Shown: positions 17,988-42,137, counted from the first letter of the stretch. The stretch is DNA of 48,455 bases from an uncultured Verrucomicrobiales bacterium (GCA_937910245.1 CALEOR010000139.1:1-48455), one strand, 5' to 3'. The notes: generated from the sequence alone by a model not told the origin. Numbers and translations are program-made.

Positions 17988-18015
17988 TGATCCTTTTTGC
18001 GAGGTAACGACGCAT
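17988..18015 (+). promoter_or_regulatory. Candidate ECF-type promoter TGATCC-N16-ACGCAT
   Basis: One of seven copies of the bipartite motif, with a T-run directly after the -35-like box. An ATG lies 6 nt downstream (18022, 22-codon ORF), and the ATG of the 121-aa ORF lies 29 nt downstream. Confidence 0.5.
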
Positions 18016-18044
18016 GATTTCATGAACCCCAATTACAATTCGAG

Positions 18045-18410
18045 ATGCATCACAATTCCACCACCCTGTCTGAAACTCCCACGATCATAGCCAACCAGCG
18101 CTGTGGATCGATCAAGGCAAACCTTTCAATAGGTCAAATCTTAAGGCCCTGGATACGGAGCTTCTTTGCCGCGCTTTTGATCGGATTTTTGGGCGGAAAT
18201 TTGGTCTCATGCCAGACCTTGGAGATGTATGAGCCGGACGTAAGAGTCGAGCTCAAGTCTTCGCCGCCCGATTCAAATTCCAATTACAACCCAAATTCGG
18301 CAGGAAGAGGACACCATACCTACGCGCATTTTGTGAACGTTGTTCGGGCACCATTTTTCGTGTTGATGGCAACCGGGGAGGTCTTGGCACTATTCTTTGG
18401 TGGTCCTTAA
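18045..18410 (+). CDS. Hypothetical small lipoprotein
   Basis: A 121-aa ORF with an internal signal-like segment and lipobox (FFAALLIGFLGGNLVSC). It lies directly downstream of a copy of the conserved promoter-like motif. No family was recognised. Confidence 0.4.
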   Translation: MHHNSTTLSETPTIIANQRCGSIKANLSIGQILRPWIRSFFAALLIGFLGGNLVSCQTLEMYEPDVRVELKSSPPDSNSNYNPNSAGRGHHTYAHFVNVVRAPFFVLMATGEVLALFFGGP

Positions 18411-18599
18411 AAAATATTTGCAAGCAGAGGCATGATCCGTGGGTGTTCCCTGATGAATTCGGAAAAATATCTGGAAATGGTCTTTTTGGACTATGAAATC
18501 TCATCTGGAAAACTTGGTTTTCCAATGAACTCCTTTGTGATTTTAGAAGGGTACCAGGCTTGAGATTGACGTTAATAATCTTTCTGATAATTTTTATAT

Positions 18600-19139
18600 A
18601 TGAGCGGAGATTTAGACCCGGCTGCAGCAGCAGAGTTGCTCCCCCTGGTCTATGAGGAGCTGAAACGACTTGCCTCTTATCGAATGGCTCAAGAAGCCCC
18701 GAATCAGACTTTGCAGGCGACGGCCTTGGTCCACGAAGCCTATCTCCGGCTGACTCATACCGGTGAAGATCCACGTTGGCAAAACAAGGCCCACTTCTTC
18801 AGTGCGGCCGCTGAGGCCATGCGGAGAATTCTCATTGACCGGGCTCGCAAGCGAAACCGAATAAAGAATGGCGGAGAACTGAAACGGACTTTTTACGATC
18901 CATCCCAAATCGAAGCTCCGGCTGGCGATGGGGAATTGCTGGCCATCGACGAGGCTTTGGAGCGATTTTCCAAGATTGATCCCGAGGGTGCCGAGTTGGT
19001 CAAACTCCGCTTCTTTGTGGGGCTCACCCTGCAGGAAATTGCGGAGACCACCGGAGTCTCTCTCCGGACCGTCAAGCGCCACTGGGTTTATGCCCGGGCT
19101 TGGCTCAAGAAGGAATTACAGGAATCCGATTCTTCCTAA
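18600..19139 (+). CDS. ECF sigma factor, TIGR02999-like (kinase-associated type)
   Basis: A 179-aa ORF. It contains LLPLVYEELKRLASYRM, TLQATALVHEAYLRL, FFSAAAEAMRRILIDRAR and VKLRFFVGLTLQEIAE...SLRTVKRHW. This is the characteristic sequence of the Planctomycete/Verrucomicrobial ECF family found next to Ser/Thr kinases. Confidence 0.9.
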   Translation: MSGDLDPAAAAELLPLVYEELKRLASYRMAQEAPNQTLQATALVHEAYLRLTHTGEDPRWQNKAHFFSAAAEAMRRILIDRARKRNRIKNGGELKRTFYDPSQIEAPAGDGELLAIDEALERFSKIDPEGAELVKLRFFVGLTLQEIAETTGVSLRTVKRHWVYARAWLKKELQESDSS

Positions 19140-19144
19140 AAAAA

Positions 19145-19172
19145 TGACCCTCTTTCATTGGAAACGACGCAT
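19145..19172 (+). promoter_or_regulatory. Candidate ECF-type promoter TGACCC-N16-ACGCAT
   Basis: The motif starts 6 nt after the sigma stop codon. It lies 201 nt upstream of the kinase ATG at 19374. Confidence 0.45.
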
Positions 19173-19373
19173 TACTTCAACAGACCCTACCATTGTTGAA
19201 AATGCCAAACCATTCCCCCGTCGCCTCCCCTTCTCTCCATTGCGCTAAGCAAGATCGCCACCGGACTGGAAAACAAGGAAGACGCAGCAAAGTATAAGAA
19301 GTTGGCGGAGGATCTATAACACTGACTTTGACTTCTATCTGAAGCAAGTTTCTCAATCCCACTTTCTGCGACG

Positions 19374-22300
19374 ATGTTTAAAAACGACCCCGACCAAAAC
19401 AATGACCCGGGAGCTGATGGCCTGAACGAAAAGGAGCTCTTCTTCTTGGCCCTGGAAATCGAAGACCCTGCCAAGCGAGCCATCTGGCTGAAGGAAGCTT
19501 GTGGCGGGGACGAGGGTCTCTACCAGCGTTTGGAAGGGCTTTTGGCTGCCGAAGCCACCGCAGGAATGGACTTCCTGAAGCCCGATGAAGATCGCCTCGG
19601 TGAAGTGGTCGCTGAGATTGGGCACGAACTCCGCACTGAAGTGGCCAATCCGGAGGCCGACACCCTTGGCGATGATCAGGATCAGGCGGCCACGGACCTG
19701 CCCGGAGTGGACTTCAACGAGAAACCCGGCGATACTATCGGGCGCTACAAGCTCCTGCAGAAAATCGGCGAAGGCGGCGGCGGCGTGGTCTACATGGCGG
19801 ATCAGACCCAACCGGTGAAGCGCCGGGTGGCCTTGAAGGTCATCAAGCTCGGGATGGACACCCGCCAGGTCGTGGCACGCTTCGAGGCCGAACGACAGGC
19901 CCTCGCCATGATGGAACATCCCAATATCGCGAGCATCCTTGATGCGGGAGCGACCGAGGGCGGACGGCCCTACTTCGTGATGGAACTGGTGCGCGGGGTC
20001 CCCATTACGACCTTCTGTGACGAACACAAGCTCGGCACCAGGGAGCGCCTCGAGCTCTTCCTGCAAGTCTGCGCGGCGGTGCAGCATGCCCATCAAAAAG
20101 GCATCATCCACCGCGACCTTAAGCCGGGCAACGTCCTCGTCACGATGATGGAAGACCGGCCCTTGCCAAAAGTGATCGACTTTGGAATCGCCAAAGCCAC
20201 CCACCAGGATCTGACCGAGAAGACCCTCTTCACGCAGCACGGAAACTTCGTTGGCACACCCACCTACATGAGTCCGGAACAGGCTTCGATGACCGGCTTC
20301 GACATCGACACCCGCAGCGACATCTACAGTCTCGGGGTCCTGCTCTATGAACTGCTGGCGGGCGCACCGCCCTTCGATCACAAGTCGCTCCTCTCCGCCG
20401 GCTACAATGAGATGCGGCGCATCATCGCGGAGGATGAACCGCCCAAGCCGAGCACCCGCTGCACCGAGACCCGGATCCAGTCAAAAACCGCGACCGGATC
20501 GAAGCCGATGAAATTCCACCTCAACCCCTCCTCCCTGAAGGGTGAGCTGGACTGGGTTGTGATGAAGGCCATCGAGAAAGACCGCACCCGGCGCTATGAA
20601 ACCCCGAATGCCTTTGCGGCGGATGTCGAGCGCTACCTAAAGGACGAACCGGTCCAGGCCGCCGCACCGAGTTCCGCCTACAAGTTCAGGAAGTTCGCGC
20701 TGCGCAACAAGACCGCCATCGGGGTGGTGGCAGGATTCGTTCTTATGTTGGTGATTGCAGTTGGCGTTAGCAGTTGGCAGGCGGTCCGGGCCATTCACGC
20801 GGGAAAGGAGTCGGAGAAAGCTCGGCGAGAGGCCGAGAGGGCGCGCGAAAGGACCGAGGATGTGTTGACCTATCTGACTGCGGTGCTCAAGAGTCCTGAT
20901 CCGGATTTTGATGGACGAAAAGTGACGGTGGCCGCGTGCCTTGCTGCTGCTGCCGATGAGTTGGAGATCCGCTTCCCGGATCAGCCGGAGCGCCAGGCGT
21001 TACTGCGGTCCGTGGTCGGGTCGACCTACTATTCCCTGGGGCTTTACCCCGAGGCCATCGAGCTTCAAGACGCTGCTTTGAAACATTTTCTGGAATCGCC
21101 TGATTCGGACCGGGTTGAAACGTTCGATGTGATGCACGAGCTGGCCGACTCCTATTATGCGGTTGGTCGTTGGAGTGAATCCTTGAAGCTGCGGGAGAAG
21201 GTCTTCGCCTTCCGTGGCAAGGTCCTTGGGGAAGCCCATCCCGACACGCTGAAGAGCATGTCCGAGCTGGCCGATTCTTATGCCGACATTGGACGAGAAC
21301 CGGAAGCTCTCAGGATGCGTGAGAAAGAACTGCTCCTGAGTCGGCAAACACTGGGTGAAGAGGACCCCCACACCCTTGGGGTCATGAGCCAACTCGCATT
21401 CTCCTACTCTTCCTTGGGTCGAAAGGCGGATTCGCTCGAGTTGCATTCGAAGGTCTTCGAACTGTCTAAGAAGACGTTTGGGGCCGAGCATGCAAGGACC
21501 ATGTCGGCGATGGGCAATCTGGCTTATTCCTATCACGCTGCGGGCCGGAGCGCAGAAGCACTGGAGTTCCGCGAGAAGGTGCTGGCGCATCATCGGGAAA
21601 AGTTCGGAGAGGAGCATCCCAGTACCCTCTTTGCGATGCATAGCCTGGGTTATTCCTACTATGGCGTCGGTCGCCGGAAGGAGGCCCTGGACCTGCGGGA
21701 AGAGGTGCTCCGACTACGTCGGGAGAAGCTTGGTCCCGTGCACGTTCGAACCCTGCGGGCGATGCGCAACTTGTCCCAAAGCTACAACGACATGGGCCGC
21801 CAGAAGGAGGCGCTCAAACTGGCTCACGAGACTCTGGACAAGTTTCGCGTAGCCCTCGGTGAGTCCGAGAAGGACACCCTTTTCGCGACAAGGAACCTGG
21901 TGGAAATCCTCCGAGACTCCGGGCAGCTGGACAAGGCGATTGAGCTCAGCGAGCAAGGCATCGAGTTGCACCGACGGAAGTATGAAGGAGAACATCCGGT
22001 CACTCTCCGGGCAATCGGCCAATTGGCGCTGCTCTACAGCGAAGCCGGTCGCCATGGGGATGCACTTGAAAAGGGAGAAGCAGTTGTGAAAGGCCTCCGT
22101 CGGAGTCTGGGCGATGCACGGCCCGCCACGCTGGAGGGTAGGGCAAGGCTGGCGACGATCCGTCGCAATGCCGGTCAGATCCCCGCCGCGATCGAGGAAG
22201 GAGTGGAGGTCTTGGCTCGGTGCCATTCGATGCTTGGCGCGGAGGCCCCCCGCACCCTCGAGGTGATGCGCAACCTGGCCCTTTCCTACAGCGCGGAGGA

Positions 22301-22622
22301 GCTCCATGAAGAGGCTCTTGAGCTTGGGAGTGAGGTCTTGGAATTGTTTGGTAAGGTCCTTGGGGAGGAACATCCAGATACCCTGGTGGCGATGGAAAAT
22401 CTGGCGGCGATGACTCAGAGCTCAGGGCTCCAAGAGGAGGCTGTGTCGATTCTGATAGAACTCCTGCCGGTAGCGCGCCGCCTACTCGAGCCCTCCCATC
22501 CTCTGCTGCCGGTCCTCATCGAGGATTTAGCCGATGGTTATGAAAAGACCGGGAACGATAAGGCTGCTCAGGAGCTGCGGAGTGAGCTCAAAGAATTGAA
22601 CGGGAAGCCTGCCGATGAATAG
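19374..22622 (+). CDS. Hanks-type Ser/Thr protein kinase, single TM, C-terminal TPR (TPR_12-like) sensor
   Basis: A 1082-aa ORF with kinase motifs GEGGGGVVY, VALK, HRDLKPGN, DFG and SPE. The TM helix is TAIGVVAGFVLMLVIAVGV. About 12 units of 42 aa follow, with EHPDTL...A..Y..GR..EA periodicity. Confidence 0.92.
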   Translation: MFKNDPDQNNDPGADGLNEKELFFLALEIEDPAKRAIWLKEACGGDEGLYQRLEGLLAAEATAGMDFLKPDEDRLGEVVAEIGHELRTEVANPEADTLGDDQDQAATDLPGVDFNEKPGDTIGRYKLLQKIGEGGGGVVYMADQTQPVKRRVALKVIKLGMDTRQVVARFEAERQALAMMEHPNIASILDAGATEGGRPYFVMELVRGVPITTFCDEHKLGTRERLELFLQVCAAVQHAHQKGIIHRDLKPGNVLVTMMEDRPLPKVIDFGIAKATHQDLTEKTLFTQHGNFVGTPTYMSPEQASMTGFDIDTRSDIYSLGVLLYELLAGAPPFDHKSLLSAGYNEMRRIIAEDEPPKPSTRCTETRIQSKTATGSKPMKFHLNPSSLKGELDWVVMKAIEKDRTRRYETPNAFAADVERYLKDEPVQAAAPSSAYKFRKFALRNKTAIGVVAGFVLMLVIAVGVSSWQAVRAIHAGKESEKARREAERARERTEDVLTYLTAVLKSPDPDFDGRKVTVAACLAAAADELEIRFPDQPERQALLRSVVGSTYYSLGLYPEAIELQDAALKHFLESPDSDRVETFDVMHELADSYYAVGRWSESLKLREKVFAFRGKVLGEAHPDTLKSMSELADSYADIGREPEALRMREKELLLSRQTLGEEDPHTLGVMSQLAFSYSSLGRKADSLELHSKVFELSKKTFGAEHARTMSAMGNLAYSYHAAGRSAEALEFREKVLAHHREKFGEEHPSTLFAMHSLGYSYYGVGRRKEALDLREEVLRLRREKLGPVHVRTLRAMRNLSQSYNDMGRQKEALKLAHETLDKFRVALGESEKDTLFATRNLVEILRDSGQLDKAIELSEQGIELHRRKYEGEHPVTLRAIGQLALLYSEAGRHGDALEKGEAVVKGLRRSLGDARPATLEGRARLATIRRNAGQIPAAIEEGVEVLARCHSMLGAEAPRTLEVMRNLALSYSAEELHEEALELGSEVLELFGKVLGEEHPDTLVAMENLAAMTQSSGLQEEAVSILIELLPVARRLLEPSHPLLPVLIEDLADGYEKTGNDKAAQELRSELKELNGKPADE

Positions 22623-22652
22623 CCGTTTCTCATACTCACCGTTAATGTCAAA

Positions 22653-22976
22653 ATGTTAGCCCGCATCATGACCATCGCCGGGCTCTTGGCTCTGGCCAGC
22701 ACCTGTTTACAGGCTGAGTCACTTGACATCGAAAACATAGACGTCGGCGATTCTACGGTCACCTGGAGGTGGATCCCGACCCAAGTCGATACTAATCCGC
22801 CATCTGACACTGGTCTCTACTGAGTCCGGGCATTTGATACGGAAAATCCTGATGATCTCGATCTCATCGCAAACGTTTCCACCGCGGCCGAGATTGTCCG
22901 GCCTCGTATCCCGGCACTGCAAGAGCATTTGGATCTGGATCCGGAGTTCGTCAACCTACTGAGGGATCTACGGTAA
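22653..22976 (+). pseudogene. Small secreted-protein ORF interrupted by an in-frame TGA (22821-22823)
   Basis: The ORF reads MLARIMTIAGLLALASTCLQAES (signal peptide)...DSTVTWRWIP...GLY-TGA-VRAFDTENPD...LRDLR-TAA. The same frame stays open and coding-like for 51 codons past the TGA. Confidence 0.3.
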
Positions 22977-23250
22977 AAGGTGAATGAGCAGGATGAGAAT
23001 TCCAGAGAGCGCTCCAATCACAACAGCACCTTCCAGCGCTTGCCCCACAAAAATGGAAACACCAGGGGCAAGCCCGTGTTTTTAACGGGAGCGGGAAATC
23101 AAACGCCAGAAAACCGGGTCTTTGCGAAAGTGATTCCTCACCGAAGGACTCAGGTCTGGTCTTTGAATCATCCCATCTGTGGACAATCAGCTAATTTTTC
23201 TCCCAACCCCCGCAGTAAAAGCAGGGTCTTAAAAATAAATCACAATCCAG

Positions 23251-23278
23251 TGATCCTTTTTGTTGCGAAAGAACGCAT
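23251..23278 (+). promoter_or_regulatory. Candidate ECF-type promoter TGATCC-N16-ACGCAT
   Basis: A copy of the bipartite motif, lying 47 nt upstream of the ATG at 23326. Confidence 0.45.
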
Positions 23279-23325
23279 CACCTAACGAGCCCCACTCAAG
23301 AGGTCTCCAAAACAAAAAATTAACG

Positions 23326-24300
23326 ATGGAAATTCATTCGCTTCAACCAAACCACCGCCCTCAGGAAAAGACAGATCCGATCCACTCCGGAGGAATCATC
23401 CCCAAGTTCCGGGCGTCCCTTCTGGTTGCCAGCCTCGGCTTCGCCACCCTTCCGGCCGGCGCTGCCACCATGTTTACAGAGTTCTTCTCCTTTGGTGACA
23501 GCCTCACCGATTCGGGGAACGTTGCCCTTGCAGTTGGCCCCCCCTATCCTTCGGGCCGCTACTCGGACGGCCCGACCTGGGCTGAGTATCTCTCAAACGA
23601 CCACCTCGGCCTCGGCCCACATGAACCTTCAGTGGCGGGTGGAAACAATCATGCCTGGGGTGGCGCACGGACCGGCGGTGGTGGACTGACTCCTACCGTT
23701 CTTCAGCAGGTCGGTGGTTATCTCGCCAGTGAAGGCACCTTCCAATCGACCTCTCTTGTGAGCGTCTGGGCGGGAGCGAACGATTTCTTTGATACTGCCA
23801 CCGATCCCGGCGGTCCGGTGAGTCCAAGCGTTTCGGTCGGTAACATCAGCGCGGCCATTGATCTTCTCGCAGGAGCCGGAGTTCGATATATCATCATCCC
23901 CAACTTCCCCGACTTCGGGGCCGCTCCCGGATTGGCAGGTGGCCCCGGATCAGCGGGCGCAAGCGCGTGGGTTCAGGGATACAATTCCCTCCTTTCCAGC
24001 GAGCTGGACGCACAACGGACCGCTCTCGGTATCTCAATTTACGAAGTCGATCTCTACACACTCGGTGCAGACATTGGTGCAAATCCTGGCAAATACGGGT
24101 TCACGAACGGAACTGATGCCGTCGTCCCGGACTTCACTCTTGATCCCACCCTCACGGCCTACTGGGACGGTGTCCATCCCACAACCGCAACGCACGCGAT
24201 CTTTGCCCAGGAAGCTTTCAACAGCATCCCGGAACCAAGCACCGGCGTTCTCGCCATCTTCGCCTTTGGGATCGCCTGCACCCGGAGAACACGCCGTTAA
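23326..24300 (+). CDS. SGNH/GDSL hydrolase (lipase/esterase) with PEP-CTERM sorting tail
   Basis: I chose the start at MEIHSL. The GDSL block I is FSFGDSLTDSGN, and the catalytic DGVHPT lies near the C-terminus. The C-terminal IPEPSTGVLAIFAFGIACTRRTRR is PEP plus TM plus a basic tail. Confidence 0.85.
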   Translation: MEIHSLQPNHRPQEKTDPIHSGGIIPKFRASLLVASLGFATLPAGAATMFTEFFSFGDSLTDSGNVALAVGPPYPSGRYSDGPTWAEYLSNDHLGLGPHEPSVAGGNNHAWGGARTGGGGLTPTVLQQVGGYLASEGTFQSTSLVSVWAGANDFFDTATDPGGPVSPSVSVGNISAAIDLLAGAGVRYIIIPNFPDFGAAPGLAGGPGSAGASAWVQGYNSLLSSELDAQRTALGISIYEVDLYTLGADIGANPGKYGFTNGTDAVVPDFTLDPTLTAYWDGVHPTTATHAIFAQEAFNSIPEPSTGVLAIFAFGIACTRRTRR

Positions 24301-24357: not shown

Positions 24358-24391
24358 CGTCCTTCCCGGCATGCCGGGGAGGACGTTTTTT
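24358..24391 (+). terminator. Rho-independent terminator
   Basis: The hairpin CGTCCTTCCCGGCA/TGCCGGGGAGGACG is nearly perfect, with one G-U pair. TTTTTT follows. It lies 58 nt after the stop at 24300. Confidence 0.8.
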
Positions 24392-26081: not shown

Positions 26082-26738
26082 CTAAATTGACTCCACAATA
26101 TACCCCTGCCCACGCCGCGTCTTGATGAAGTCCTTCCCGAACTTCTGCCGCAGTTTGTATACGTAAACATCGAGCATGTTCGACATCGACTCATCGTTCT
26201 CATCGAAAAGATGATCATATAAAAAATCCCGCGTCACCACTTCATCGCGATGCTGGATCATCAACTCCGCCATCGCAAACTCCCGCGCGGTCACTTCCAC
26301 TTCCTTGTCATTCACCTTCAGGGTCTTCGCCGTCGTGTTAATGGTCACCTTTCCCACCGTCACCTCCGGTCGGTGCTCGCCGCCATTGCGTCGGATTACC
26401 GCCCGCACCCGCGCCACCAACTCCGCCAGATCAAAGGGCTTTGCCAAATAATCATCGGCCCCGTGGTTCAACCCCTTCACCTTATCCTGCACCTGATCCA
26501 GCGCCGTCAACATGAGCACCGGCGTCTGGCGCTCCTTCCGCAATTTTTCCAAAACCTCCCAACCATCCATCACCGGCATCATGACATCCAGCACCACGAG
26601 ATCATAATCCCAGTTCAGCGCCTTATAGAGCCCCTCCTCCCCATCCGCCGATTCATCGACCGCAAAGGATTCCTCCCGCAAGGTCTCCGCCACAACTTCC
26701 CGCAAATCATCCTGATCCTCCACAACAAGCACTCTCAT
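26082..26738 (-). CDS. OmpR/PhoB-family response regulator
   Basis: A 218-aa ORF with a receiver domain (VVEDQDD...DLVVLDVMMP) and a winged-helix output (LTAREFAMAELM...RRGQGY). It abuts the kinase gene with no gap. Confidence 0.92.
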   Translation of the reverse strand: MRVLVVEDQDDLREVVAETLREESFAVDESADGEEGLYKALNWDYDLVVLDVMMPVMDGWEVLEKLRKERQTPVLMLTALDQVQDKVKGLNHGADDYLAKPFDLAELVARVRAVIRRNGGEHRPEVTVGKVTINTTAKTLKVNDKEVEVTAREFAMAELMIQHRDEVVTRDFLYDHLFDENDESMSNMLDVYVYKLRQKFGKDFIKTRRGQGYIVESI

Positions 26739-28250: not shown

Positions 28251-28348
28251 CGAGAAAGCTAAGAGCCAACCGCTGAAAGCCAATCGCCATGGTGCTTAGG
28301 GCCTTTGGCTCCGAACCGATCCCCAGCTGATCGCACTGCCGGGCGTCC
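28251..28348 (+). repeat. Copy A of a conserved ~100-nt intergenic element (candidate structured leader RNA)
   Basis: About 88% identical by eye to 37799-37893. It is non-coding in all frames. It contains the hairpin AGCCAA-UC-GCC...GGC-CU-UUGGCU. It lies ~80-175 nt upstream of the ATG at 28428. Confidence 0.5.
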
Positions 28349-29349: not shown

Positions 29350-29898
29350 ATGCCCGACTACACCCGATGGCTCAACGCCTCCACCAACTCGGGTGAAGAC
29401 GACCTCTTTGCCGGCCTTTACACCGAACTGAAGAAAATCGCAGGCGGCCGCATGGCTCTGGAACGGCAGGGCGGCACTCTCGATGCCACCGCCCTCGTCC
29501 ACGAAGCCTGGCTCCGCCTCCAGAAGTCCGCCCCGGAGAAATGGCGCGACCGCAAGCAATTCTTCGCCGCCGCTGCCGAGGCCATGCGCCGCATTCTTGT
29601 CGAATCCGCCCGCCGTCGCCTCGCCGCGAAACGCGGTGCCGGGGAGGACGCCGTCCCGCTCGATGGCCTCGATCTCCCGTCGCCCGTCGCCGATGAACGC
29701 CTCCTCGGCATCCACGAAGTCCTCGACCAACTCGCCCTCGAGGACGAACTCAAGGCCCACATCGTCAAACTCCGCTTCTTCGGCGGCATGAATCACGACG
29801 AGATTGCCGCCCTTCTCGAAATCAGCGAAAAAACCGTCCGCCGCCACTGGTCCCTCGCCAAAATCTGGCTCTACCGGGCCATGAAAAAAGAAGACTGA
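29350..29898 (+). CDS. ECF sigma factor, TIGR02999-like (kinase-associated type)
   Basis: I chose the start at MPDYTRWLNAS, parallel to MADVTRWLNAS of the 39981 paralog. It lies 19 nt after the cyclase stop. The same signature blocks as in 18600-19139 are present (LVHEAWLRL, FFAAAAEAMRRILVESAR, VKLRFFGGM...EKTVRRHW). Confidence 0.9.
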   Translation: MPDYTRWLNASTNSGEDDLFAGLYTELKKIAGGRMALERQGGTLDATALVHEAWLRLQKSAPEKWRDRKQFFAAAAEAMRRILVESARRRLAAKRGAGEDAVPLDGLDLPSPVADERLLGIHEVLDQLALEDELKAHIVKLRFFGGMNHDEIAALLEISEKTVRRHWSLAKIWLYRAMKKED

Positions 29899-29905: not shown

Positions 29906-29933
29906 TGTCCGTTTTTCCCACCCTTTCACGCGT
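29906..29933 (+). promoter_or_regulatory. Candidate ECF-type promoter TGTCCG-N16-ACGCGT
   Basis: A copy of the bipartite motif in the 46-nt sigma-kinase spacer. The -10-like box ends 11 nt before the kinase ATG at 29945. Confidence 0.5.
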
Positions 29934-29944: not shown

Positions 29945-32599
29945 ATGACCACTCCCGCCCAAGACCTCTTCGCCCAGGCCCACGACCTGGATCCCGACGC
30001 TCGTGAGGCCTTCCTTGCCAAAGCCTGTGGCGACGACGCCGAACTCCACCTCGAGGTCCAGCGCCTCCTCGTCGATGCCGAGAAGGCCCAATCCTTCTTT
30101 GCGGACACCGAAGGTGCCACCATCGGCGCCGAGGAATTCGACGAGACCTACACCGAGGCCGAGGGCGACGTCGTCGGCCCCTACACCCTGCGCCAACAAA
30201 TTGGCGAGGGCGGCTTCGGCACCGTCTGGATGGCCGAGCAAAGCGAACCCATCTCGCGCATGGTCGCCCTCAAGGTCATCAAGGCCGGGATGGACACCAA
30301 GCAGGTCCTCGCCCGCTTCGAGGCCGAGCGCCAGGCCGTCGCGATGATGGATCACCCCAATATCGCCAAAGTCCTCGACGCCGGTGCCACTTCCACCGGC
30401 CGACCCTACTTCGCGATGGAGCTCGTCAAGGGCATCCCCATCACCCAGTTCTGCGATCAGCAGAAGTTTGGCCCCAAACGCCGCCTCGAGCTCTTCCGCG
30501 ACGTCTGCGCCGCCGTCCAACACGCCCACCAGAAGGGCATCATCCACCGCGACCTCAAGCCCTCCAACATCATGGTCACCCTCGCCGCCGATGTCCCGGT
30601 GGTGAAGGTCATCGACTTCGGCATCGCCAAGGCCACCCAAAACAAGCTCACCGAAAAGACCCTCTTCACCCGCTTCGAGCAGTTCCTCGGCACCCCGGTC
30701 TACATGAGCCCCGAGCAGGCCGCGATGAGTGCGATCGACATCGACACCCGCTCGGACATCTACAGCCTCGGCGTCCTTCTTTACGAACTCCTCGCCGGTG
30801 CCCCGCCCTTCGATCAAAAGTCGCTCCTCTCCGCCGGTTACGACGAAATGCGCCGCATCATCGTGGAAGACGAACCGCCCAAGCCCAGTACCCGCTGCAC
30901 CGAGACCCAAGCCAATACCACGACCGGAACCGGATCAAAGCCCAGGAAATCTCATCTCAGCCCCAGCGCCCTGAAGGGCGAACTGGACTGGATCGTGATG
31001 AAGGCCATCGAGAAGGACCGCACCCGTCGCTACGAGACCGCCAACGCCTTCGCCTCCGACATCGGGCGCTACCTTTCCGACGAACCGGTGCAAGCCGCCG
31101 CGCCAAGTTCCACCTACAAGTTCAAGAAATTCGCCCGGCGCAACAAGGCCGCCTTTTCGGTGGCCGCCGCGATGCTCGTCTTGCTCCTCGCAGGCATCGC
31201 CACCACCAGCTGGCAGGCGGTGCGGGCCACGCAAGAGGCCGAACGGGCGACCCAGGCCGAGAAAAAAGCCACCGAAGAGAGCGAGGCCAAGACCGCAGCG
31301 CTCGAGGACGCCAAAGCGACCTCGAAGTTCCTGACCGACATGTTCAAGAGCTCCCGGCCCGGCGAGGAGAAGGGCGGGCGCAAGGTCAAGGTCGCAGAAG
31401 TCCTCGATCGGGCCGCGAAGCAACTGGATGACGACACCCAAATGCTCCCGAGAACGCGCGCAGTGCTGCAGGGGGCACTTGGAAAAACCTACAATGCCCT
31501 CGGGCTCTATCCACAGGCCATCCCGCTGCTGGAACAGGTATGGAAGTACTCCCTCGCAGCCCTCAGCCCGGAGCACCCCGACACGCTCGAGGCGATGGGC
31601 AACCTGGCGATTTCCTACCAGCGTGCCGGCCACCGGGTCGAGTCGATCAAAATTTTAGAGAAGGTGTTGCTGCTCCAGCGCAAAGTGCTCGACCCGGAGC
31701 ACCCCGACACGCTCAGATCGATGAACAGTCTGGCGCATTGCTACCACGCCGCCGGCCGCTGGGACGAGGCGCTCAAGATGCAAGAAGAGTTGCTGCCGCT
31801 GTGCCTGCAGGTGAGCGGCCCGAAGCACCCCGACACGCTCGTAGCAATGGCCTCCCTGGTGGAATCCTACTACTATGTAGACCGCCGGGACAAGATGCGC
31901 AAAGTGCTCGAGGAGCTGCTGCCGTTATCCAACGAGGTGTTCAAACCGGAGCACCCCTTCACGCTCCAGGCGAAGCGCGGCCTGGCGATTTTACACTCCG
32001 ATGCCGGCCGACTGGACGAGGCGATCAAGCTGGGCGAGGAGGTGCTGGCACTTTCCCTCAAGGCGGTTGGCCCGAAGCATTTCATCACGCTCCAGGTAAT
32101 GGGCTCCCTGGCGGATTTCTACTCCGATGATGGTCGCCGTGACGAGGCGATTAAGCTGGGCGAGGAAGTGCTGGCGCTTTCCCGCGAGGTGAATGGCCCC
32201 AAGCACCACAACACGCTCTCGATGATGAGCACTCTCTCAATCATTTACAACGATGCCGGGCGAAGCGCAGACGCGATCAAGCTCGGAAAATCGGGTCTCG
32301 ATTTGCATTTGAAAGTCATTGGGGAGAAGCACCCCGACACCCTCAATGCCATGACCAACCTCGCCATCTGTTATCAAGTGGCCGACCGCCTCAAGGAGGC
32401 CATTGCCCTGGAGGAAAAGGCGCTCGGGCTGAAACGTCGGATCCTTCGGTCCGGGCATCGGAAAACGATCGAATCGATGGACAACCTCGCCACCTACTAC
32501 GAGAAGGCGGACCGCAAGGAGGAAGCAAAGCCCCTCCGCGACGAGATCGCCAAGCTCAAAGCGGACGCCGCCAAAGCAACACCCCCGCCCACAGAATGA
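29945..32599 (+). CDS. Hanks-type Ser/Thr protein kinase, single TM, C-terminal TPR sensor
   Basis: An 884-aa ORF with kinase motifs GEGGFGTVW, VALK, HRDLKPSN, DFG and SPE. The TM helix is AAFSVAAAMLVLLLAGIATT. Eight clear 42-aa TPR_12-like units follow (EHPDTL...). Confidence 0.92.
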   Translation: MTTPAQDLFAQAHDLDPDAREAFLAKACGDDAELHLEVQRLLVDAEKAQSFFADTEGATIGAEEFDETYTEAEGDVVGPYTLRQQIGEGGFGTVWMAEQSEPISRMVALKVIKAGMDTKQVLARFEAERQAVAMMDHPNIAKVLDAGATSTGRPYFAMELVKGIPITQFCDQQKFGPKRRLELFRDVCAAVQHAHQKGIIHRDLKPSNIMVTLAADVPVVKVIDFGIAKATQNKLTEKTLFTRFEQFLGTPVYMSPEQAAMSAIDIDTRSDIYSLGVLLYELLAGAPPFDQKSLLSAGYDEMRRIIVEDEPPKPSTRCTETQANTTTGTGSKPRKSHLSPSALKGELDWIVMKAIEKDRTRRYETANAFASDIGRYLSDEPVQAAAPSSTYKFKKFARRNKAAFSVAAAMLVLLLAGIATTSWQAVRATQEAERATQAEKKATEESEAKTAALEDAKATSKFLTDMFKSSRPGEEKGGRKVKVAEVLDRAAKQLDDDTQMLPRTRAVLQGALGKTYNALGLYPQAIPLLEQVWKYSLAALSPEHPDTLEAMGNLAISYQRAGHRVESIKILEKVLLLQRKVLDPEHPDTLRSMNSLAHCYHAAGRWDEALKMQEELLPLCLQVSGPKHPDTLVAMASLVESYYYVDRRDKMRKVLEELLPLSNEVFKPEHPFTLQAKRGLAILHSDAGRLDEAIKLGEEVLALSLKAVGPKHFITLQVMGSLADFYSDDGRRDEAIKLGEEVLALSREVNGPKHHNTLSMMSTLSIIYNDAGRSADAIKLGKSGLDLHLKVIGEKHPDTLNAMTNLAICYQVADRLKEAIALEEKALGLKRRILRSGHRKTIESMDNLATYYEKADRKEEAKPLRDEIAKLKADAAKATPPPTE

Positions 32600-34211: not shown

Positions 34212-35039
34212 CTACCTCCGGCGCCGTGCCAGGAGCCATCCAAACGCGGAGACCAGCAGGACGCTCGATGACGGTTCGGGAACCGGCGTAAATGACTGAC
34301 CGGCCGTAAGCCCATCAATGTCATTTTTGACAGCCGATAATCCAACCAAATCAAAGAATCCAATGTTCGTTCCAAAAGCGCCGGCTGCGGGCGACTCCGG
34401 GGCTGACCCGAGAAAGCCCATACCGGCCACTAACTCAGTTCCTAAGAGCATTGAATGGTCTAATGACGGCCCCCCACTCGTGGTGGGAAATACGAAGGCC
34501 TGAATCGTTGGATCCGTCGGATAGGGTGCGAATGGGAGACCCAAGTCAAAAGGATCCGACATGGTCTGCGGAGCACCGTCTATTGTGACGTAGAAAAATC
34601 CAAATCCTGAGACCTCCGACAGAACCGCTTGCCCGCCGGAATCAACGACTTCAATTCCGAAAAGGTGAAGGCAACCTGGTAGAATTGGGTCAGGCACAAG
34701 AGGCGTCCCCACAACAGTTTCGGAAGTAAACGAGAAAAACGTGGATCCGTCGGGCTGGTCCGTTCTCACGGCCGAATGCCTCCCACCACCAACGACCATG
34801 GGCGGACCGGTCGTCGGAAACTCCCCCTCAATCTCACCATCAAAAAAGTTCTCCGTGTGAAAAGTGATGCTGGCTCCGTTTGCATCGGACGGATGTGCGA
34901 AGCCCGACCAGGCTACGACACCAATCAAACTCAGTTGCGAGAGGGAGGAACAAGCGAGGAACTCGCGATTAAGGATTTTTTTCATGATACGAATTGGGGG
35001 TTGTTTTGGTTTCTTTTGCCGGGCGCTTTTGCCCGTCAT
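34212..35039 (-). CDS. PEP-CTERM domain secreted protein
   Basis: A 275-aa ORF with C-terminal VPEPSSSVLLVSAFGWLLARRRR. The start at 35039 lies 6 nt downstream of a promoter-like motif, suggesting a leaderless mRNA. The alternative start MKKILNREF at 34985 gives a more canonical signal peptide. Confidence 0.8.
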   Translation of the reverse strand: MTGKSARQKKPKQPPIRIMKKILNREFLACSSLSQLSLIGVVAWSGFAHPSDANGASITFHTENFFDGEIEGEFPTTGPPMVVGGGRHSAVRTDQPDGSTFFSFTSETVVGTPLVPDPILPGCLHLFGIEVVDSGGQAVLSEVSGFGFFYVTIDGAPQTMSDPFDLGLPFAPYPTDPTIQAFVFPTTSGGPSLDHSMLLGTELVAGMGFLGSAPESPAAGAFGTNIGFFDLVGLSAVKNDIDGLTAGQSFTPVPEPSSSVLLVSAFGWLLARRRR

Positions 35040-35045
35040 CCCCCC

Positions 35046-35073
35046 ATGCGTATTCCGGCTAAAAAAACGGACA
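35046..35073 (-). promoter_or_regulatory. Candidate ECF-type promoter TGTCCG-N16-ACGCAT (minus strand)
   Basis: The minus strand reads TGTCCG-TTTTTTTAGCCGGAAT-ACGCAT-GGGGGG-ATG. This is the only minus-strand copy, and it is correctly oriented for the minus-strand gene. Confidence 0.5.
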
Positions 35074-35447: not shown

Positions 35448-36707
35448 GTGATGAACAGCAATTTAACCAAGCGAGGCTTCCTCTCCCTGACCGTCGCACA
35501 ATTTTTTGGGGCGGCGAACGACAACCTTCTGAAGGTCGTACTCAGTTTTGCCGTGGGAACAGGCCTCTGGTATACCTTGCTAGGAGAGGGAGGAGTGGCT
35601 TACATCGGGCTTTGTTTTACGATGCCGTTCATTTTTCTTTCGGGTTACGCAGGACAATTGGCGGATCGAATCAGTAAACAAAAGATCTCCTACTGGGTGA
35701 AAGTCGCAGAGATCGGGATCACTTTGGTGGCGATGCTGGGATTCTGGCAGGGTAATTTATGGATCACCATGGGAGCGATGATTCTCCTGGCGATTCAAAG
35801 TGCTTTTTTTGGACCGGCCAAGTATGGCATGATTCCCGAGTTGGTGGACAAGGGAGATCTCAGCCGCGCCAATGGCGTGATCAATATGTCGACGAACATC
35901 GCCGTGATCGCGGGAACCGTGTTGGCGGGGCATGTGTCTGATGCCTATCAAGGGATCGACACGGATATGCCGCTTTCCTGGCTGCCGGGAGTGGCATTGG
36001 TAGGTGTCGCCATTCTGGGTTGGGTCGCGATTTCATTCATGCCTCGAATGGAGGCGATGGATCCTGATCTGAAGTTCGACTGGAATCCATTCGGGGTTTA
36101 CCTGACGGCCTTGAAAGAAATGAGCCGTAGTCCTTTGCTGACCGTGGCCTGTGCGTGGTCGACCTTCTACATGATCGGGATGCTGGCACTGACGATCTTG
36201 TTGGCGTATCCGAAACTGTTCGTGCTAAGTGACAGCGAAGGAGCTATGCTGCTCGGAGTGCTGGGAGTGTCAATTGGCATGGGGAGTGTGCTGGCGGGGC
36301 TGATTTCCGGACACACCATTAAACCGAAACTGATTCCGGTCGGGGCGATTGGAATGACGATCTTCTTCGCGGCCTTGGGACTGGCTCCCATGAATTACGG
36401 AATCGTGGCAACTTTCATTGCCGGTGTCGGCGTGTTTGCGGGTTTCTACATCGTTCCCTTGCAGGCACTTCTCCAGCATCTCTCACCCGATGACGAACGG
36501 GGCCGGTTTCTGGGAACCGCAAACGCGATGTCCTTTGTCGCGAGTTCGATAGGGCTCTTGATTTATATATTTACAGTCCGGGTGCTTGGGATGGAACCCA
36601 ATCGGGTGTTCTTAATTTGTGCAGGGTTGGCGTTTTTCGGGACGGGTGCCTTGATCTGGCGGATGCGTAAACTGATGGCGAAGGAAGCGAATAAAGAGGC
36701 TGCCTGA
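35448..36707 (+). CDS. MFS transporter (LplT-like lysophospholipid-transporter type)
   Basis: A 419-aa ORF with ~12 TM helices. The N-terminus FLSLTVAQFFGAANDNLLKVVL resembles the MFS module of LplT/Aas-type proteins. Confidence 0.8.
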   Translation: MMNSNLTKRGFLSLTVAQFFGAANDNLLKVVLSFAVGTGLWYTLLGEGGVAYIGLCFTMPFIFLSGYAGQLADRISKQKISYWVKVAEIGITLVAMLGFWQGNLWITMGAMILLAIQSAFFGPAKYGMIPELVDKGDLSRANGVINMSTNIAVIAGTVLAGHVSDAYQGIDTDMPLSWLPGVALVGVAILGWVAISFMPRMEAMDPDLKFDWNPFGVYLTALKEMSRSPLLTVACAWSTFYMIGMLALTILLAYPKLFVLSDSEGAMLLGVLGVSIGMGSVLAGLISGHTIKPKLIPVGAIGMTIFFAALGLAPMNYGIVATFIAGVGVFAGFYIVPLQALLQHLSPDDERGRFLGTANAMSFVASSIGLLIYIFTVRVLGMEPNRVFLICAGLAFFGTGALIWRMRKLMAKEANKEAA

Positions 36708-36747
36708 ACCCCTGAATGAACGAACGATGGCTGATGTGATCCGTTGG
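36473..36747 (+). repeat. Direct repeat copy 1: MFS 3' end plus the first 7 codons of an ECF sigma gene
   Basis: It aligns with 39679-40001 at ~88% identity, apart from a ~48-nt indel after the MFS stop. ATGGCTGATGTGATCCGTTGG (36727-36747) matches the start MADVTRW of the intact sigma gene at 39981. Homology then stops abruptly. Confidence 0.8.
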
Positions 36748-36802
36748 ATACTCTTGCCGGTTTGGTCTGATTCGAAACCCGCCGGCGTTCCGCTACAAAG
36801 AC

Positions 36803-36837: not shown

Positions 36838-36867
36838 GAAATTAGCCAATAACGAATTCCTAATTCC

Positions 36868-37593: not shown

Positions 37594-37798
37594 AGATTTT
37601 TAATCTCTTCCTATACGAAATTATCCACCTTAATTTATCTATTTTTTATCATTTATTTTTTCGTTCCATTCTAATGAAACCGGCGTCCCGATGATATCCG
37701 GAAGGGTAAAGCTGGGCATCCAGGGCGATCAAGGGAAATAAGAGAACGACAAGGTTTGTGGCGTCGGCTGTTGGCGATTAGCCCGGTCGACCGCACCG

Positions 37799-37893
37799 CG
37801 AGAAAGCTAAGTGCCAACCGCTAAAAGCGAATCGCCATGGTGCGTAGGGCCCTTCGCTCCGCCCCGATCCCTTGATCGCCCTGCCGGGCATCC
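37799..37893 (+). repeat. Copy B of the conserved ~100-nt intergenic element (candidate structured leader RNA)
   Basis: It aligns with 28251-28348. The hairpin here is AGCGAA...UUCGCU, against AGCCAA...UUGGCU in copy A, a compensatory C:G to G:C change. It lies ~90-185 nt upstream of the ATG at 37985. Confidence 0.5.
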
Positions 37894-37984
37894 TGCAAGT
37901 TCCTCCTCTGCAAACTCTCCAGAAAGAGGCACTCTTTCCAAAATCCTGCAAGCCGTCCTCTCAAAACTCATTCGATCATCCGCT

Positions 37985-39532: not shown

Positions 39533-39599
39533 AGAAGCGGCCCAAGCTGGAAAGGCAAAACGATCAGCGATGAAAATCTCCGCAAAACAGCAAGGTGGG

Positions 39600-39684
39600 C
39601 TATTTTAGCTGAACGGGTTTGGCGAAAGTGCGCATCGATCTCTCGACGGCGGGAAAGAAGTCCTTGTTCCCCCGCTGCCCAGCA
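39600..39684 (-). pseudogene. Internally deleted remnant of a paralog of the 45641-47077 gene
   Basis: Positions 39600-39622 match the last codons plus stop of 45641-47077 (...AKPVQLK* vs ...AKPVRLK*). Positions 39617-39685 match its internal segment 46427-46495 (KDFFPAVERSMRTFAK vs KDFLPAVEKSMRTFAK). The two pieces are joined at the shared hexamer TTTGGC. Confidence 0.7.
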
Positions 39685-39912
39685 TCTCTCACCCAATGAT
39701 GAACGGGGCCGGTTTCTGAAAACCGCAAACGCAATGTCCTTTGTCGCGAGTTCGATAGGGCTCTTGATTTATTTGTTTGCAGTCGAAGTGCTCGGGATGG
39801 AACCCAATCGTGTTTTCCTGATTTGTGCAGGGTTGGCGTTTTTCGGGACGGGAGCTTTGATCTGGCGGATGCGCAAGCTGATGGCGAAGGAAGCTGGCAA
39901 AGAGGCCGCCTG
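39679..39912 (+). pseudogene. 3' fragment (77 codons) of an MFS gene paralogous to 35448-36707; part of direct repeat copy 2 (39679-40001)
   Basis: It translates to QHLSPNDERGRFLKTANAMSFVASSIGLLIYLFAVEVLGMEPNRVFLICAGLAFFGTGALIWRMRKLMAKEAGKEAA*. The intact gene has QHLSPDDERGRFLGTANAMSF...KEANKEAA*. There is no upstream coding continuation. It is fused to the previous remnant at CCAGCA. Confidence 0.8.
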
Positions 39913-39980
39913 ACCCCCAAATAGAGGGCCCGCATTGCCGATTGACCCGCCCCCCGTTGCAGTGGTGAAATGAACGAACG

Positions 39981-40526
39981 ATGGCTGATGTGACCCGTTG
40001 GCTGAATGCCTCCACCTCCTCCCGCGATGAGGAGATGTTCGCCGGTTTGTATGCCGAGCTCCACAAGATCGCGCGCGGCCGCATGGCGGGAGAGCGACCG
40101 GAACAAACCCTTGATGCGACCGGCCTGGTCCATGAGGCTTGGTTGCGGCTCGAGAAATCCGCACCGGAGGAGTGGCAAAATCGCAAGCACTTCTTCGGGG
40201 CGGCGGCCGAGGCGATGCGGCGCATCCTGGTGGAAGCGGCCCGCCGGCGCATGGCGGCCAAGCGCGGAGAGGGAGAGGGAGCGGTGCCGCTCGACGAAGC
40301 CCTGCCCATCCCCTCGGCGATGCCCGACGAACGGCTTCTCGCCGTCCACGAAGTGCTTGATCAACTCGAGAAGGAACACGAAATGGATGCCCAAATTGTG
40401 AAGCTGAAGTTCTTCGGCGGCCTGAAGCAGGACGAAATCGCGGCCCTCCTGGAAGTGAGCGAAAAGACGGTGCAACGGCATTGGATCATGGCCAAGACCT
40501 GGCTTTATCAAGCCTTGCAAGAATAG
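39981..40526 (+). CDS. ECF sigma factor, TIGR02999-like (kinase-associated type)
   Basis: A 181-aa ORF, ~70% identical by eye to the 29350-29898 product. The same signature blocks are present (LVHEAWLRL, FFGAAAEAMRRILVEAAR, VKLKFFGGL...EKTVQRHW). Confidence 0.9.
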   Translation: MADVTRWLNASTSSRDEEMFAGLYAELHKIARGRMAGERPEQTLDATGLVHEAWLRLEKSAPEEWQNRKHFFGAAAEAMRRILVEAARRRMAAKRGEGEGAVPLDEALPIPSAMPDERLLAVHEVLDQLEKEHEMDAQIVKLKFFGGLKQDEIAALLEVSEKTVQRHWIMAKTWLYQALQE

Positions 40527-40581
40527 ATTGAAGGCCCCGCAGTCTGCTTTGCACCAAGCCAAAAAAAAACTTCAAATCCGA

Positions 40582-40609
40582 TGACCCTTTTTTCCGGGTC
40601 ACAACGCAT
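40582..40609 (+). promoter_or_regulatory. Candidate ECF-type promoter TGACCC-N16-ACGCAT
   Basis: A copy of the bipartite motif. The -10-like box ends 8 nt before the MFS ATG at 40618. It is embedded in an ~85-nt cassette duplicated at 42060-42145. Confidence 0.5.
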
Positions 40610-40617
40610 GTTATTCC

Positions 40618-41943
40618 ATGGAGCCACAATCAGCCACCTTCCCCTCACCCGAAGCCGCCGTCGACCCGATGGACATCGACAGTAGCGGAGACGGTGTAAC
40701 GCCTCGCAACTGGATCTCGCTCATCGCGGTGTTAATCGTGCAGGCGCAGAACGCGTTTAACGACAACTTCGTCAAGTTCGTCCTCCTGGGACTCGCGATC
40801 GCAGCCTTCAAAGGCGGATTCATCGGCGACAATATTGAACACATCCTCGGGGCGATGATTCCCATCCCCTTCATCTTGCTGGCACCGGTCGCCGGCTATC
40901 TCTCCGATCGCTATTCCAAGCGCACCATTATTGTTATTAGCCTGATCGGCCAACTGACCATCTTCGCGCTCATCGCCATCAGCCTGATGTCGCACTTCGT
41001 CTACGGCGCACTGCTCGGCTATTTTCTGCTCGCCGTGCAGTCGACCGTCTTCTCACCGGCCAAGCAGGGCATTCTCAAGGAACTGATCGGCTCCGAGCGC
41101 CTCGGCTTCGCCAATGGCCTGATGCAAATGCTGACGATGGTCGGCATTCTCGGTGGCATGTTCCTCGGTGGCATGTTTTTCACCTCGCTCAATGAGAGCG
41201 GAGGAGACGAGTGGCGCTCCGCCCTGATCCCCACCCTCGTTGCGGGCTTGGCCGCCATCGTCCCACTGGTGCTGGTGCGCTGGATTCAAGCGACCCCTGC
41301 CCACCCAAAGATGCATTTCACCAGAGAAGTATGGGGTCGCCATTTCGTGCATCTCAAGGAACTGTTCAGGAACCGTATTCTGCGGCTGACTTCGCTGGCA
41401 ATTTCGAGCTACTGGTTTCTCGCCAATTTCATCGGCCTCGCGGTGATCGGATTCGGCAAGGAACTCAAACCCGATGGCGCTCCGGGTGCCTCGGCCTTGA
41501 TGATGGCCTTGATCGGCATCGGCTTAATCATTGGCAGCATCGTCGTCTCAACTCTCAGCAGGCACCGCATCCGGCTCGACATCGTGCCACTGGGCGTCGC
41601 CGGAATCACCGCCGGTTTGGTCGCTCTTGGCACTCTGCCTGCCGGCAGCGTCGCGTGGAATTTCAGCCTCGGCTTCATCGGCTTTTCCTCGGGTTTCCTT
41701 CTGGTTCCGCTCAACGCATTTCTCCAGGACCGTGCCTCGGAAGCCACTCGCGGGCGCATTCTCTCCGCCAACAACTTGCTGGCGTCTTTTGTCGGACTCG
41801 TCTCGATCGCCATTGGGCTCTTCATGACCAGCGCCCTTGATTGGGAGGCCTCCACCCAGGTGCTGATCTATGCGGGTTTCGGGTCCATCATTCTCCTCGT
41901 CTTGACCTTGCACTCCATGCCCATCCTGCGCCGGGCCCAATGA
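40618..41943 (+). CDS. MFS transporter (LplT-like), located between sigma and kinase
   Basis: A 441-aa ORF with ~12 TM helices. The N-terminal IVQAQNAFNDNFVKFVLLGLAI parallels VAQFFGAANDNLLKVVLSFAV of the 35448 paralog. Confidence 0.8.
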   Translation: MEPQSATFPSPEAAVDPMDIDSSGDGVTPRNWISLIAVLIVQAQNAFNDNFVKFVLLGLAIAAFKGGFIGDNIEHILGAMIPIPFILLAPVAGYLSDRYSKRTIIVISLIGQLTIFALIAISLMSHFVYGALLGYFLLAVQSTVFSPAKQGILKELIGSERLGFANGLMQMLTMVGILGGMFLGGMFFTSLNESGGDEWRSALIPTLVAGLAAIVPLVLVRWIQATPAHPKMHFTREVWGRHFVHLKELFRNRILRLTSLAISSYWFLANFIGLAVIGFGKELKPDGAPGASALMMALIGIGLIIGSIVVSTLSRHRIRLDIVPLGVAGITAGLVALGTLPAGSVAWNFSLGFIGFSSGFLLVPLNAFLQDRASEATRGRILSANNLLASFVGLVSIAIGLFMTSALDWEASTQVLIYAGFGSIILLVLTLHSMPILRRAQ

Positions 41944-42109
41944 GATCTGCCAGACGCCAGGACACACCACCATTGACGATCTGTCGCTCTCCTCAAAGTC
42001 AACAAGAAGACAGCGCCGCAACATTCGCTGATGGCCAGAACTTGCAGAAGTCGATGTAAGGTCCAGCAGCCTGCTTTGCACCAAGTCATAAAAAATACTT
42101 CAAATCCGA

Positions 42110-42137
42110 TGTCTTTTTTTTCCGGGCCAAGACGCAT
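42110..42137 (+). promoter_or_regulatory. Candidate ECF-type promoter TGTCTT-N16-ACGCAT
   Basis: A copy of the bipartite motif. The -10-like box ends 8 nt before the kinase ATG at 42146. Confidence 0.5.

Follow-up and report, generated by a model that had tools for sequence, protein, structure and literature searches.

What reads a short bipartite DNA motif that recurs beside three sigma factor genes and the protein kinase genes that follow them? The question is raised by a 48,455-nucleotide (nt) stretch of DNA from an uncultured Verrucomicrobiales bacterium (GCA_937910245.1, CALEOR010000139.1:1-48455), the whole of which is referred to here as the window. Between positions 17988 and 42137 it carries seven copies of the motif, and three of these lie directly behind genes for extracytoplasmic function (ECF) sigma factors of the TIGR02999/ECF43 type, designated sigma 1, 2 and 3. 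On comparative sequence grounds, we consider it very likely that RNA polymerase carrying these neighboring sigma factors reads all seven sites as promoters.

Seven copies of one bipartite motif

In its strict form, TGWYC-N17-ACGCRT (two hexamers with a 16-nt spacer between them), the motif was found six times in the window, at 17988, 19145, 23251, 29906 and 40582 on the plus strand and at 35073-35046 on the minus strand. The number expected by chance is 0.16, based on 100 dinucleotide-preserving shuffles of which none reached six, in agreement with a preliminary description of this DNA that had put the random expectation below one. That description had listed seven copies of TG(A/T)(C/T)C-N16-ACGC(A/G)T; six of them are exact, and the one at 42110 (TGTCTT) departs from the consensus at a single base, with T for C at position 5. 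When the pattern was relaxed to TGWY-N19-CGCRT, the same seven sites were recovered and no others. A weight matrix built from the seven sites yielded no eighth site in the window, the next best score being 4.6 against at least 33, a gap that is indicative only because the matrix is overfitted. The copies are as follows.

17988..18015, plus strand: copy 1, TGATCC-N16-ACGCAT; subfamily A; 29 nt to the ATG of a 121-amino-acid (aa) open reading frame (ORF), which is followed by sigma 1
19145..19172, plus strand: copy 2, TGACCC-N16-ACGCAT; 5 nt past the sigma 1 stop codon and 201 nt to the kinase 1 ATG
23251..23278, plus strand: copy 3, TGATCC-N16-ACGCAT; 47 nt to the ATG of a GDSL lipase gene (23326)
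29906..29933, plus strand: copy 4, TGTCCG-N16-ACGCGT; 7 nt past the sigma 2 stop codon and 11 nt to the kinase 2 ATG
35046..35073, minus strand: copy 5, TGTCCG-N16-ACGCAT; 6 or 60 nt to the start of a PEP-CTERM protein gene
40582..40609, plus strand: copy 6, TGACCC-N16-ACGCAT; 55 nt past the sigma 3 stop codon and 8 nt to the ATG of a major facilitator superfamily (MFS) transporter gene
42110..42137, plus strand: copy 7, TGTCTT-N16-ACGCAT; 8 nt to the kinase 3 ATG, inside a duplicate (42041-42163) of segment 40514-40635

Three further claims of the preliminary description hold throughout. The spacer measures 16 nt in 7/7 copies and opens with a T-run (TCTTT in the copy at 19145). All seven copies are intergenic and share the orientation of the next gene, with 6-201 nt between motif and ATG, in a region (17.5-44.9 kb) of which approximately 17% is non-coding by our count. 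Each of the three TIGR02999-like sigma genes is followed by a copy, which begins 5, 7 and 55 nt past the stop codons of sigma 1, 2 and 3, respectively. The sites fall into two subfamilies. Subfamily A comprises the copies near sigma 1 (17988, 19145 and 23251) and reads TGA(T/C)CC ... GAAA(C)GA-ACGCAT, and subfamily B comprises those near sigma 2 and sigma 3 (29906, 35073, 40582 and 42110), with a run of 5-8 T and, in three of the four, CCGG within the spacer.

Two short blocks separated by a fixed 16-nt spacer constitute the layout of an ECF-type promoter, for which 16-17 nt is the norm. Read in this manner, TGA(T/C)CC or TGTCC(G) would be the -35 element, the adjoining T-tract a feature of the spacer, and (A)CGCAT, 16 nt on, the -10 element. 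ECF promoters are known to be stimulated by a T-tract beside the -35 element (PMC5758882). Scans of the window for sigma-70-like promoters and for terminators gave no prediction overlapping any of the seven sites, and an Rfam scan of the window gave no match.

The region behind the sigma gene in related loci

Related loci were gathered from two sources. A genome scan provided 80 loci with 49-59% sigma identity, nearly all from metagenome-assembled genomes of Planctomycetota or Verrucomicrobiota, and 77 of these were used for segments downstream of the sigma gene. A metagenome scan provided 80 further loci with 44-58% sigma identity, and 6-mer enrichment was assessed over 151 related loci. Because the consensus of the window is not conserved letter for letter, the relatives were analyzed by anchoring on position. 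An exact-protein look-up had as its sole match a 2.4-kb contig that is 99.9% identical to the window; the 783-aa edge protein had no record.

The most enriched 6-mer within 150 nt after the sigma stop codon, in an unbiased count, was CGCATT, which was present in 32 loci against 5.6 expected (p ~1e-15). GCATTG, GCACTG and CGCACT ranked next among 6-mers that are not AT-rich. In the genome loci, CGCAYTG occurs past the sigma stop codon in 31 of 77, compared with an expectation of 0.023 per 150 nt. Loci anchored on CGCAYT show T, G, (A/G) and G at positions -23 to -20, with an A/T-rich stretch upstream of this TG(A/G)G block, and the offset is identical to that between the T of TGAYCC and the C of CGCAT in the window. 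The combined pattern TG-N21-CGCA[CT] is found in 29/77 sigma-downstream segments (38%; Planctomycetota and Verrucomicrobiota) against 2.8% of 8,274 background segments. In 31 of the 35 motif-bearing loci with enough sequence, the next ORF encodes a kinase (HRDxKPxN), most often after a leader of 28-52 nt.

The nearest matches to the window are verrucomicrobial loci, four of which (L010, L018, L023 and L029) read TGATC(C/G/T), a T-run and CGC(A/T)(T/C), with a fifth (L028) differing by one extra base, together with locus L128, which has two copies of TGACCG-TTTTCGG...-CGCAT. The arrangement within L128 (6518-6720 and 9187-9260) parallels the duplication in the window, in that the first promoter copy precedes a 48-aa relic of a kinase N-terminus and the second precedes a full-length kinase gene. 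In many of the more distant soil-metagenome loci, sigma and kinase genes overlap or directly adjoin each other, with no promoter between them.

A separate observation concerns the Planctomycetota loci (L003-L077), where conservation is also seen 6-16 nt past CGCAY: position +9 is often T, and positions +13 to +16, well ahead of the start codon, hold a block resembling (G/A)GAG, for example CGCACTGTCTTGTGGAG. This conservation past CGCAYTG may represent a conserved initial transcribed region or an element of the 5' untranslated region.

Which protein reads the motif

Evidence that bears on the identity of the reader comes from the sigma factors themselves. Among 46 sigma/promoter pairs, the residue that precedes the conserved Thr of the region-4.2 helix (xxT[AV]xRxW) co-varies with bases 3-4 of the -35 element. 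The mutual information is 1.81 bits, a value that 0/10,000 permutations matched, in statistics that ignore phylogeny, though the classes are interspersed; the sigma factor most similar outside the helix belongs to another class in 22/46 cases. The correspondence by helix residue is as follows.

Helix residue A: -35 bases 3-4 AG, 14/18
Helix residue P: -35 bases 3-4 AT, 6/6
Helix residue R: -35 bases 3-4 GC, 8/11
Helix residue K: -35 bases 3-4 AC or TC, 3/3
Helix residue S: -35 bases 3-4 GT, 3/5

One pair of loci illustrates the covariation: the sigma factors of L044 (LPTAERYW, TGATGG) and L025 (LATAERYW, TGAGGG) are 74% identical, and the change of A to P in the helix is accompanied by T in place of G in the -35 element. 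In the window, sigma 2 and sigma 3 (EKTV) belong to the K class, as do L128 and five soil-metagenome loci. Near their sigma genes these five have TGACCCC-N16/17-CGC(G/A)T, just upstream and divergent in four of the five. A relaxed K-class pattern was not enriched overall (0.87 matches per 10 kb in K-class loci against 0.95); five of its matches, even so, were TGACCCC-type sites shortly before or after the sigma gene. Within the window, we infer that sigma 1 would act at 17988, 19145 and 23251, and sigma 2 and sigma 3 at the other four copies.

As an observation in its own right, four loci with overlapping sigma and kinase genes (L105, L107, L123 and L156) have TGACCCC or TGTCCCC-N16/17-CGC(G/A)T on the strand opposite to the sigma gene and 100-200 nt ahead of it, facing a divergent gene, which suggests that in this clade the target promoter lies beside the operon and not inside it.

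The preliminary description had proposed that the motif is the cognate promoter of these ECF sigma factors. Comparison supports this reading through the enrichment of CGCATT, the shared 23-nt geometry, the covariation of helix and -35 element, and the kinase as next gene, and the transcription starts and sigma dependence of the seven sites are predicted on that basis.

Several points weigh against it. Of the conservation that might be expected among relatives, the geometry and the CGCA(C/T) core behind the sigma genes were recovered and the exact consensus was not; a search of the 80 genome loci with the exact pattern returned 5 matches, approximately the chance level. Neither the genome nor the metagenome scan for close relatives found a sigma factor more than 59% identical, which is too distant for orthologous footprinting. 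What is conserved is the geometry and the -10 core, and the -35 elements are clade-specific. ECF promoters usually have AAC in their -35 element and a -10 element of the CGT type (PMC5758882), and the window motif lacks AAC and has CGC in place of CGT. ECF groups vary in both elements, and such atypical sequences lower the typicality of the motif without ruling out the ECF class. The seven copies are not independent events, and duplication inflates their apparent number. The neglect of phylogeny in the covariation statistics belongs here as well. Sigma 1 (LRTV) is of the R class, yet the promoters adjacent to it read TGA(T/C)CC and not the TGGC of R-class relatives. Lastly, class-specific -35 variants in the flanks of related loci, excluding the sigma-kinase spacer, gave a noisy picture in which only TGATC of the P class stood out, and half of those matches resembled conserved coding sequence.

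The sites might be genuine promoters read by a different sigma factor, either another ECF sigma or a general alternative sigma, in which case adjacency would reflect co-regulation. The window does contain a fourth, unrelated ECF sigma gene at 1026-1604 (best match TIGR02989, under its cutoff), which is followed by a gene for a VWA/YfbK-type protein (to 3640). The link between the motif and a particular sigma factor rests on comparison, and the helix class of sigma 1 is mismatched to the local -35 type, unlike in relatives. We nonetheless find such a reader improbable, since across the 46 loci the -35 element tracks the recognition-helix residue in the neighboring TIGR02999 sigma, and the motif lies directly past the gene of this sigma family in two phyla; furthermore, window-wide pattern and matrix scans placed no copy near the sigma gene at 1026-1604.

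It is also conceivable that the similarity among the sites is mostly a relic of segmental duplication of the sigma-kinase modules, with no function of its own. Duplication has certainly occurred. Segments 40514-40635 and 42041-42163 form a 120-nt duplication with 80% identity that takes in the final codons of sigma 3; the MFS gene accordingly lies between two copies of one ancestral sigma 3-to-kinase 3 spacer. The sigma 2-kinase 2 and sigma 3-kinase 3 modules are paralogous (70-80% DNA identity), and the copies at 17988, 19145 and 23251 have 44 nt in common at ~70% identity. In an alignment of the four sigma-to-kinase intergenic regions, however, TG.C, the T-run and ACGC.T are the only invariant parts and the remainder has diverged, a pattern expected from selection on a promoter core. 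Three copies (17988, 23251 and 35073) precede unrelated genes, and the same geometry recurs at sigma loci of 50-59% identity in two phyla. Taken together, these features render the relic explanation highly improbable.

Scarcely credible is the remaining alternative, that a DNA-binding regulator, such as the OmpR-type response regulator at 26082-26738, binds the motif, which would then be no promoter core: a two-component pair does lie inside the cluster and operators can be bipartite too, but the halves form neither direct nor inverted repeats, the 16-nt spacer and its T-tract and the CGC-type second block are features of ECF promoters, four to five copies sit 6-11 nt before a start codon and leave no room for a separate downstream promoter, and motif-bearing related loci generally have no such regulator, although this was not examined systematically.

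Other repeats in the window were noted beside these duplications. Upstream of sigma 3, a 240-nt segment repeats the 3' end of a second MFS gene, MFS-A, stop codon included, with 89% identity (36473-36747 and 39679-40001). The start region of sigma 3, in turn, recurs just past MFS-A as a 33-nt copy with 97% identity, ATGGCTGATGTGA(T/C)CCGTTGG, beyond which the similarity stops. These partial copies of MFS-A and sigma 3 point to rearrangement or deletion of an ancestral MFS-sigma unit. A 73-nt direct repeat with 89% identity is located at 28251-28323, upstream of an FHA-cyclase gene, and at 37799-37871, at the annotated GTG start of a glutamate-synthase-like gene; it has no Rfam match.

A proposed kinase feedback circuit and its known relatives

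If RNA polymerase with sigma 1, 2 or 3 reads the seven promoters, the genes that they face would form a local regulon. The genes concerned are listed below.

18045..18410, plus strand: 121-aa ORF without a family match; an LVSC lipobox-like sequence makes it a putative lipoprotein
18600..19139, plus strand: sigma 1, TIGR02999 and Pfam Sigma70_ECF; region 2.2 QATAL, region 4.2 helix LRTVKRHW
19374..22622, plus strand: kinase 1, a Hanks-type Ser/Thr kinase with one transmembrane segment, then TPR repeats
23326..24300, plus strand: GDSL lipase whose PEP-CTERM tail is weak; behind it, at 24358-24385, lies a strong terminator-like hairpin
29350..29898, plus strand: sigma 2, TIGR02999, with the start set at M31 of the listed ORF; region 2.2 DATAL, helix EKTVRRHW
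29945..32599, plus strand: kinase 2, a Ser/Thr kinase with one transmembrane segment, then TPR repeats; conserved N-terminal DLF..A from residue 7
34212..35039, minus strand: PEP-CTERM protein (TIGR02595, 22.5 bits against a cutoff of 16)
39981..40526, plus strand: sigma 3, TIGR02999; region 2.2 DATGL, helix EKTVQRHW
40618..41943, plus strand: MFS transporter B (MFS-B), between sigma 3 and kinase 3, with the duplicated promoter segment on both sides
42146..44890, plus strand: kinase 3, a Ser/Thr kinase with one transmembrane segment, then a WD40 propeller

All three sigma factors exceed the TIGR02999 cutoff of 126.15 bits, with scores of 198.3, 178.8 and 186.2 bits for sigma 1, 2 and 3, and they match PF07638 (Sigma70_ECF) with E-values of 5e-55 to 3e-40. 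Together with their kinases they form three paralogous modules within 24 kb. The Hanks-type kinase gene occupies position +1 relative to sigma 1 and to sigma 2, and +2 relative to sigma 3, past the inserted MFS gene, and in each kinase the hydrophobic segment sits after the kinase domain. Region 2.2 reads QATA, DATA and DATG in the three sigma factors, with an invariant Thr, and the first Asp is retained in sigma 2 and sigma 3. The true start of the PEP-CTERM protein is likely 34985, which gives a signal-peptide-like N-terminus, MKKILNREFLACSS. A 16-codon ORF (MPNHSPVASPSLHCAK) lies at 19212-19259, in the 201-nt leader that separates motif copy 2 from kinase 1.

The placement of the promoters indicates which partner is under feedback. 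A second motif copy of the same class was found within 450 nt upstream of the sigma gene in 0/47 loci with a sigma-to-kinase motif, and in the window sigma 2 and sigma 3 likewise have none in front of them; sigma 1 may be within reach of the copy at 17988 through the 121-aa ORF. With no copy upstream of the sigma genes, it is the kinase and not the sigma factor that stands behind the promoter. Judging by this arrangement, each sigma factor probably switches on its own activating kinase.

The transcripts of several of these genes may be unusual. An ATG follows the -10 hexamer by 11, 8 and 8 nt at kinase 2, kinase 3 and MFS-B, and the kinase starts are fixed by a conserved N-terminal (D/E)(L/I)F..A located 6-8 residues in, as in relatives. 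At such distances the mRNAs of kinase 2, kinase 3 and MFS-B are predicted to be leaderless or nearly so, and leaderless is what they probably are. A Shine-Dalgarno-like tetramer is present in the 20 nt before the start codon in only 3/27 window genes, which makes leaderless translation plausible, and the organism appears to be largely Shine-Dalgarno-independent. The leaders of relatives are longer, and the near-leaderless spacing is particular to the window.

The following circuit is hypothesized. The sigma genes would be transcribed from other promoters, and their products would be inert because (Q/D)AT(A/G) replaces the acidic DAED of region 2.2. A Ser/Thr kinase that spans the membrane and exposes a TPR or WD40 domain on the outside would phosphorylate the conserved Thr and thereby enable the sigma factor to bind core polymerase. 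The resulting holoenzyme would fire the motif promoters and produce more kinase, a positive feedback on the activator, and the same promoters would turn on a local set of envelope and exported proteins, namely the putative lipoprotein, the GDSL lipase, the PEP-CTERM protein and the MFS transporter. In the proteobacterial sigma factors EcfP and EcfK, a region 2.2 Thr is phosphorylated by the partner kinase, restoring core polymerase binding (PMC8999054, PMC13147305). By analogy, the membrane kinases of the window would activate sigma 1, 2 and 3 by phosphorylation. An inert sigma factor made constitutively, combined with a kinase under sigma control, is predicted to behave as a switch.

Planctomycetes and Verrucomicrobia possess many ECF sigma factors coupled to Ser/Thr kinases, and for most of the groups concerned the main ECF classification offers no usable promoter. 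Quite possibly, though we advance this only tentatively, the kinase-linked TIGR02999 sigma factors of Planctomycetota and Verrucomicrobiota have one promoter design in common: the sigma factor would not activate itself, the promoter would lie between sigma and kinase, a single residue of region 4.2 (A, P, R, K or S) would set -35 bases 3-4, prediction based on autoregulation would have missed the design, and in the present organism the kinase mRNAs would be leaderless. If true, such a design would provide a readable specificity code by which dozens of paralogous sigma-kinase pairs in a genome are insulated. The fixed-geometry consensus and the correspondence of helix and -35 element would permit prediction of regulons genome by genome. 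The correspondence would also help to explain the lack of cross-talk among paralogous pairs, and the consensus would supply templates for phosphorylation-dependent transcription outside of Proteobacteria.

Among known systems, EcfP/PknT of Vibrio parahaemolyticus and EcfK/PknS of Xanthomonas citri share with the window a sigma factor of the Sigma70_ECF/TIGR02999 type, an adjoining gene for a Hanks-type kinase that combines a single transmembrane segment with an outer TPR domain, and a region 2.2 in which DAED is replaced and a conserved Thr occupies the phospho-site position (PMC8999054, PMC13147305). The window differs in that its organism belongs to the Planctomycetes-Verrucomicrobia (PVC) group and not to Proteobacteria, in having three paralogous modules, one of whose kinases carries WD40, and in its separate promoter between sigma and kinase.

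The preliminary description was aware of no published promoter consensus for this sigma group. One prediction does exist, for ECF43 in version 2.0 of the ECF classification by Casas-Pastor et al., given as 'GTC in -35 and CAG in -10' and derived from 69 proteins, 100% of them proteobacterial, using regions upstream of the sigma gene (10.1101/2019.12.11.873521). Its motif differs from ours. Both are bipartite and belong to the same Pfam sigma type, whereas in the window GTC occurs only in the three TGTC copies (TGTCCG and TGTCTT), most -35 elements read TGA(T/C)CC, and the -10 element is CGCAT, with no CAG in any -10 block. For planctomycetal kinase-linked groups, the reported promoters are 'TC in -35' for ECF59 and 'not conserved' for ECF61, ECF62 (WD40 kinases) and ECF217 (10.1101/2019.12.11.873521). 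Since the published predictions assume autoregulation and use sigma-upstream regions, they would miss a promoter placed after the sigma gene. ECF62 resembles the sigma 3 module in having a kinase with one transmembrane segment and WD40, as in kinase 3, with the ECF62 kinase at +1; no promoter is reported for ECF62.

The promoters of the Bacillus subtilis sigma-W/V/M/X factors (TGAAAC-N16-CGTA/CGTC) likewise consist of two short blocks with a 16-nt spacer and a T-tract right after the -35 element (PMC5758882), and differ from the window sites in having AAC in the -35 element and CGT, not CGC, in the -10 element. In contrast to a classical autoregulated ECF system, the promoter in the window is downstream of the sigma gene and would drive the activator kinase and not a sigma/anti-sigma operon. 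The motif is very probably of a known kind, an ECF-type promoter, with an apparently unreported consensus, an unusual placement that puts the activating kinase under feedback, and probably leaderless transcripts.

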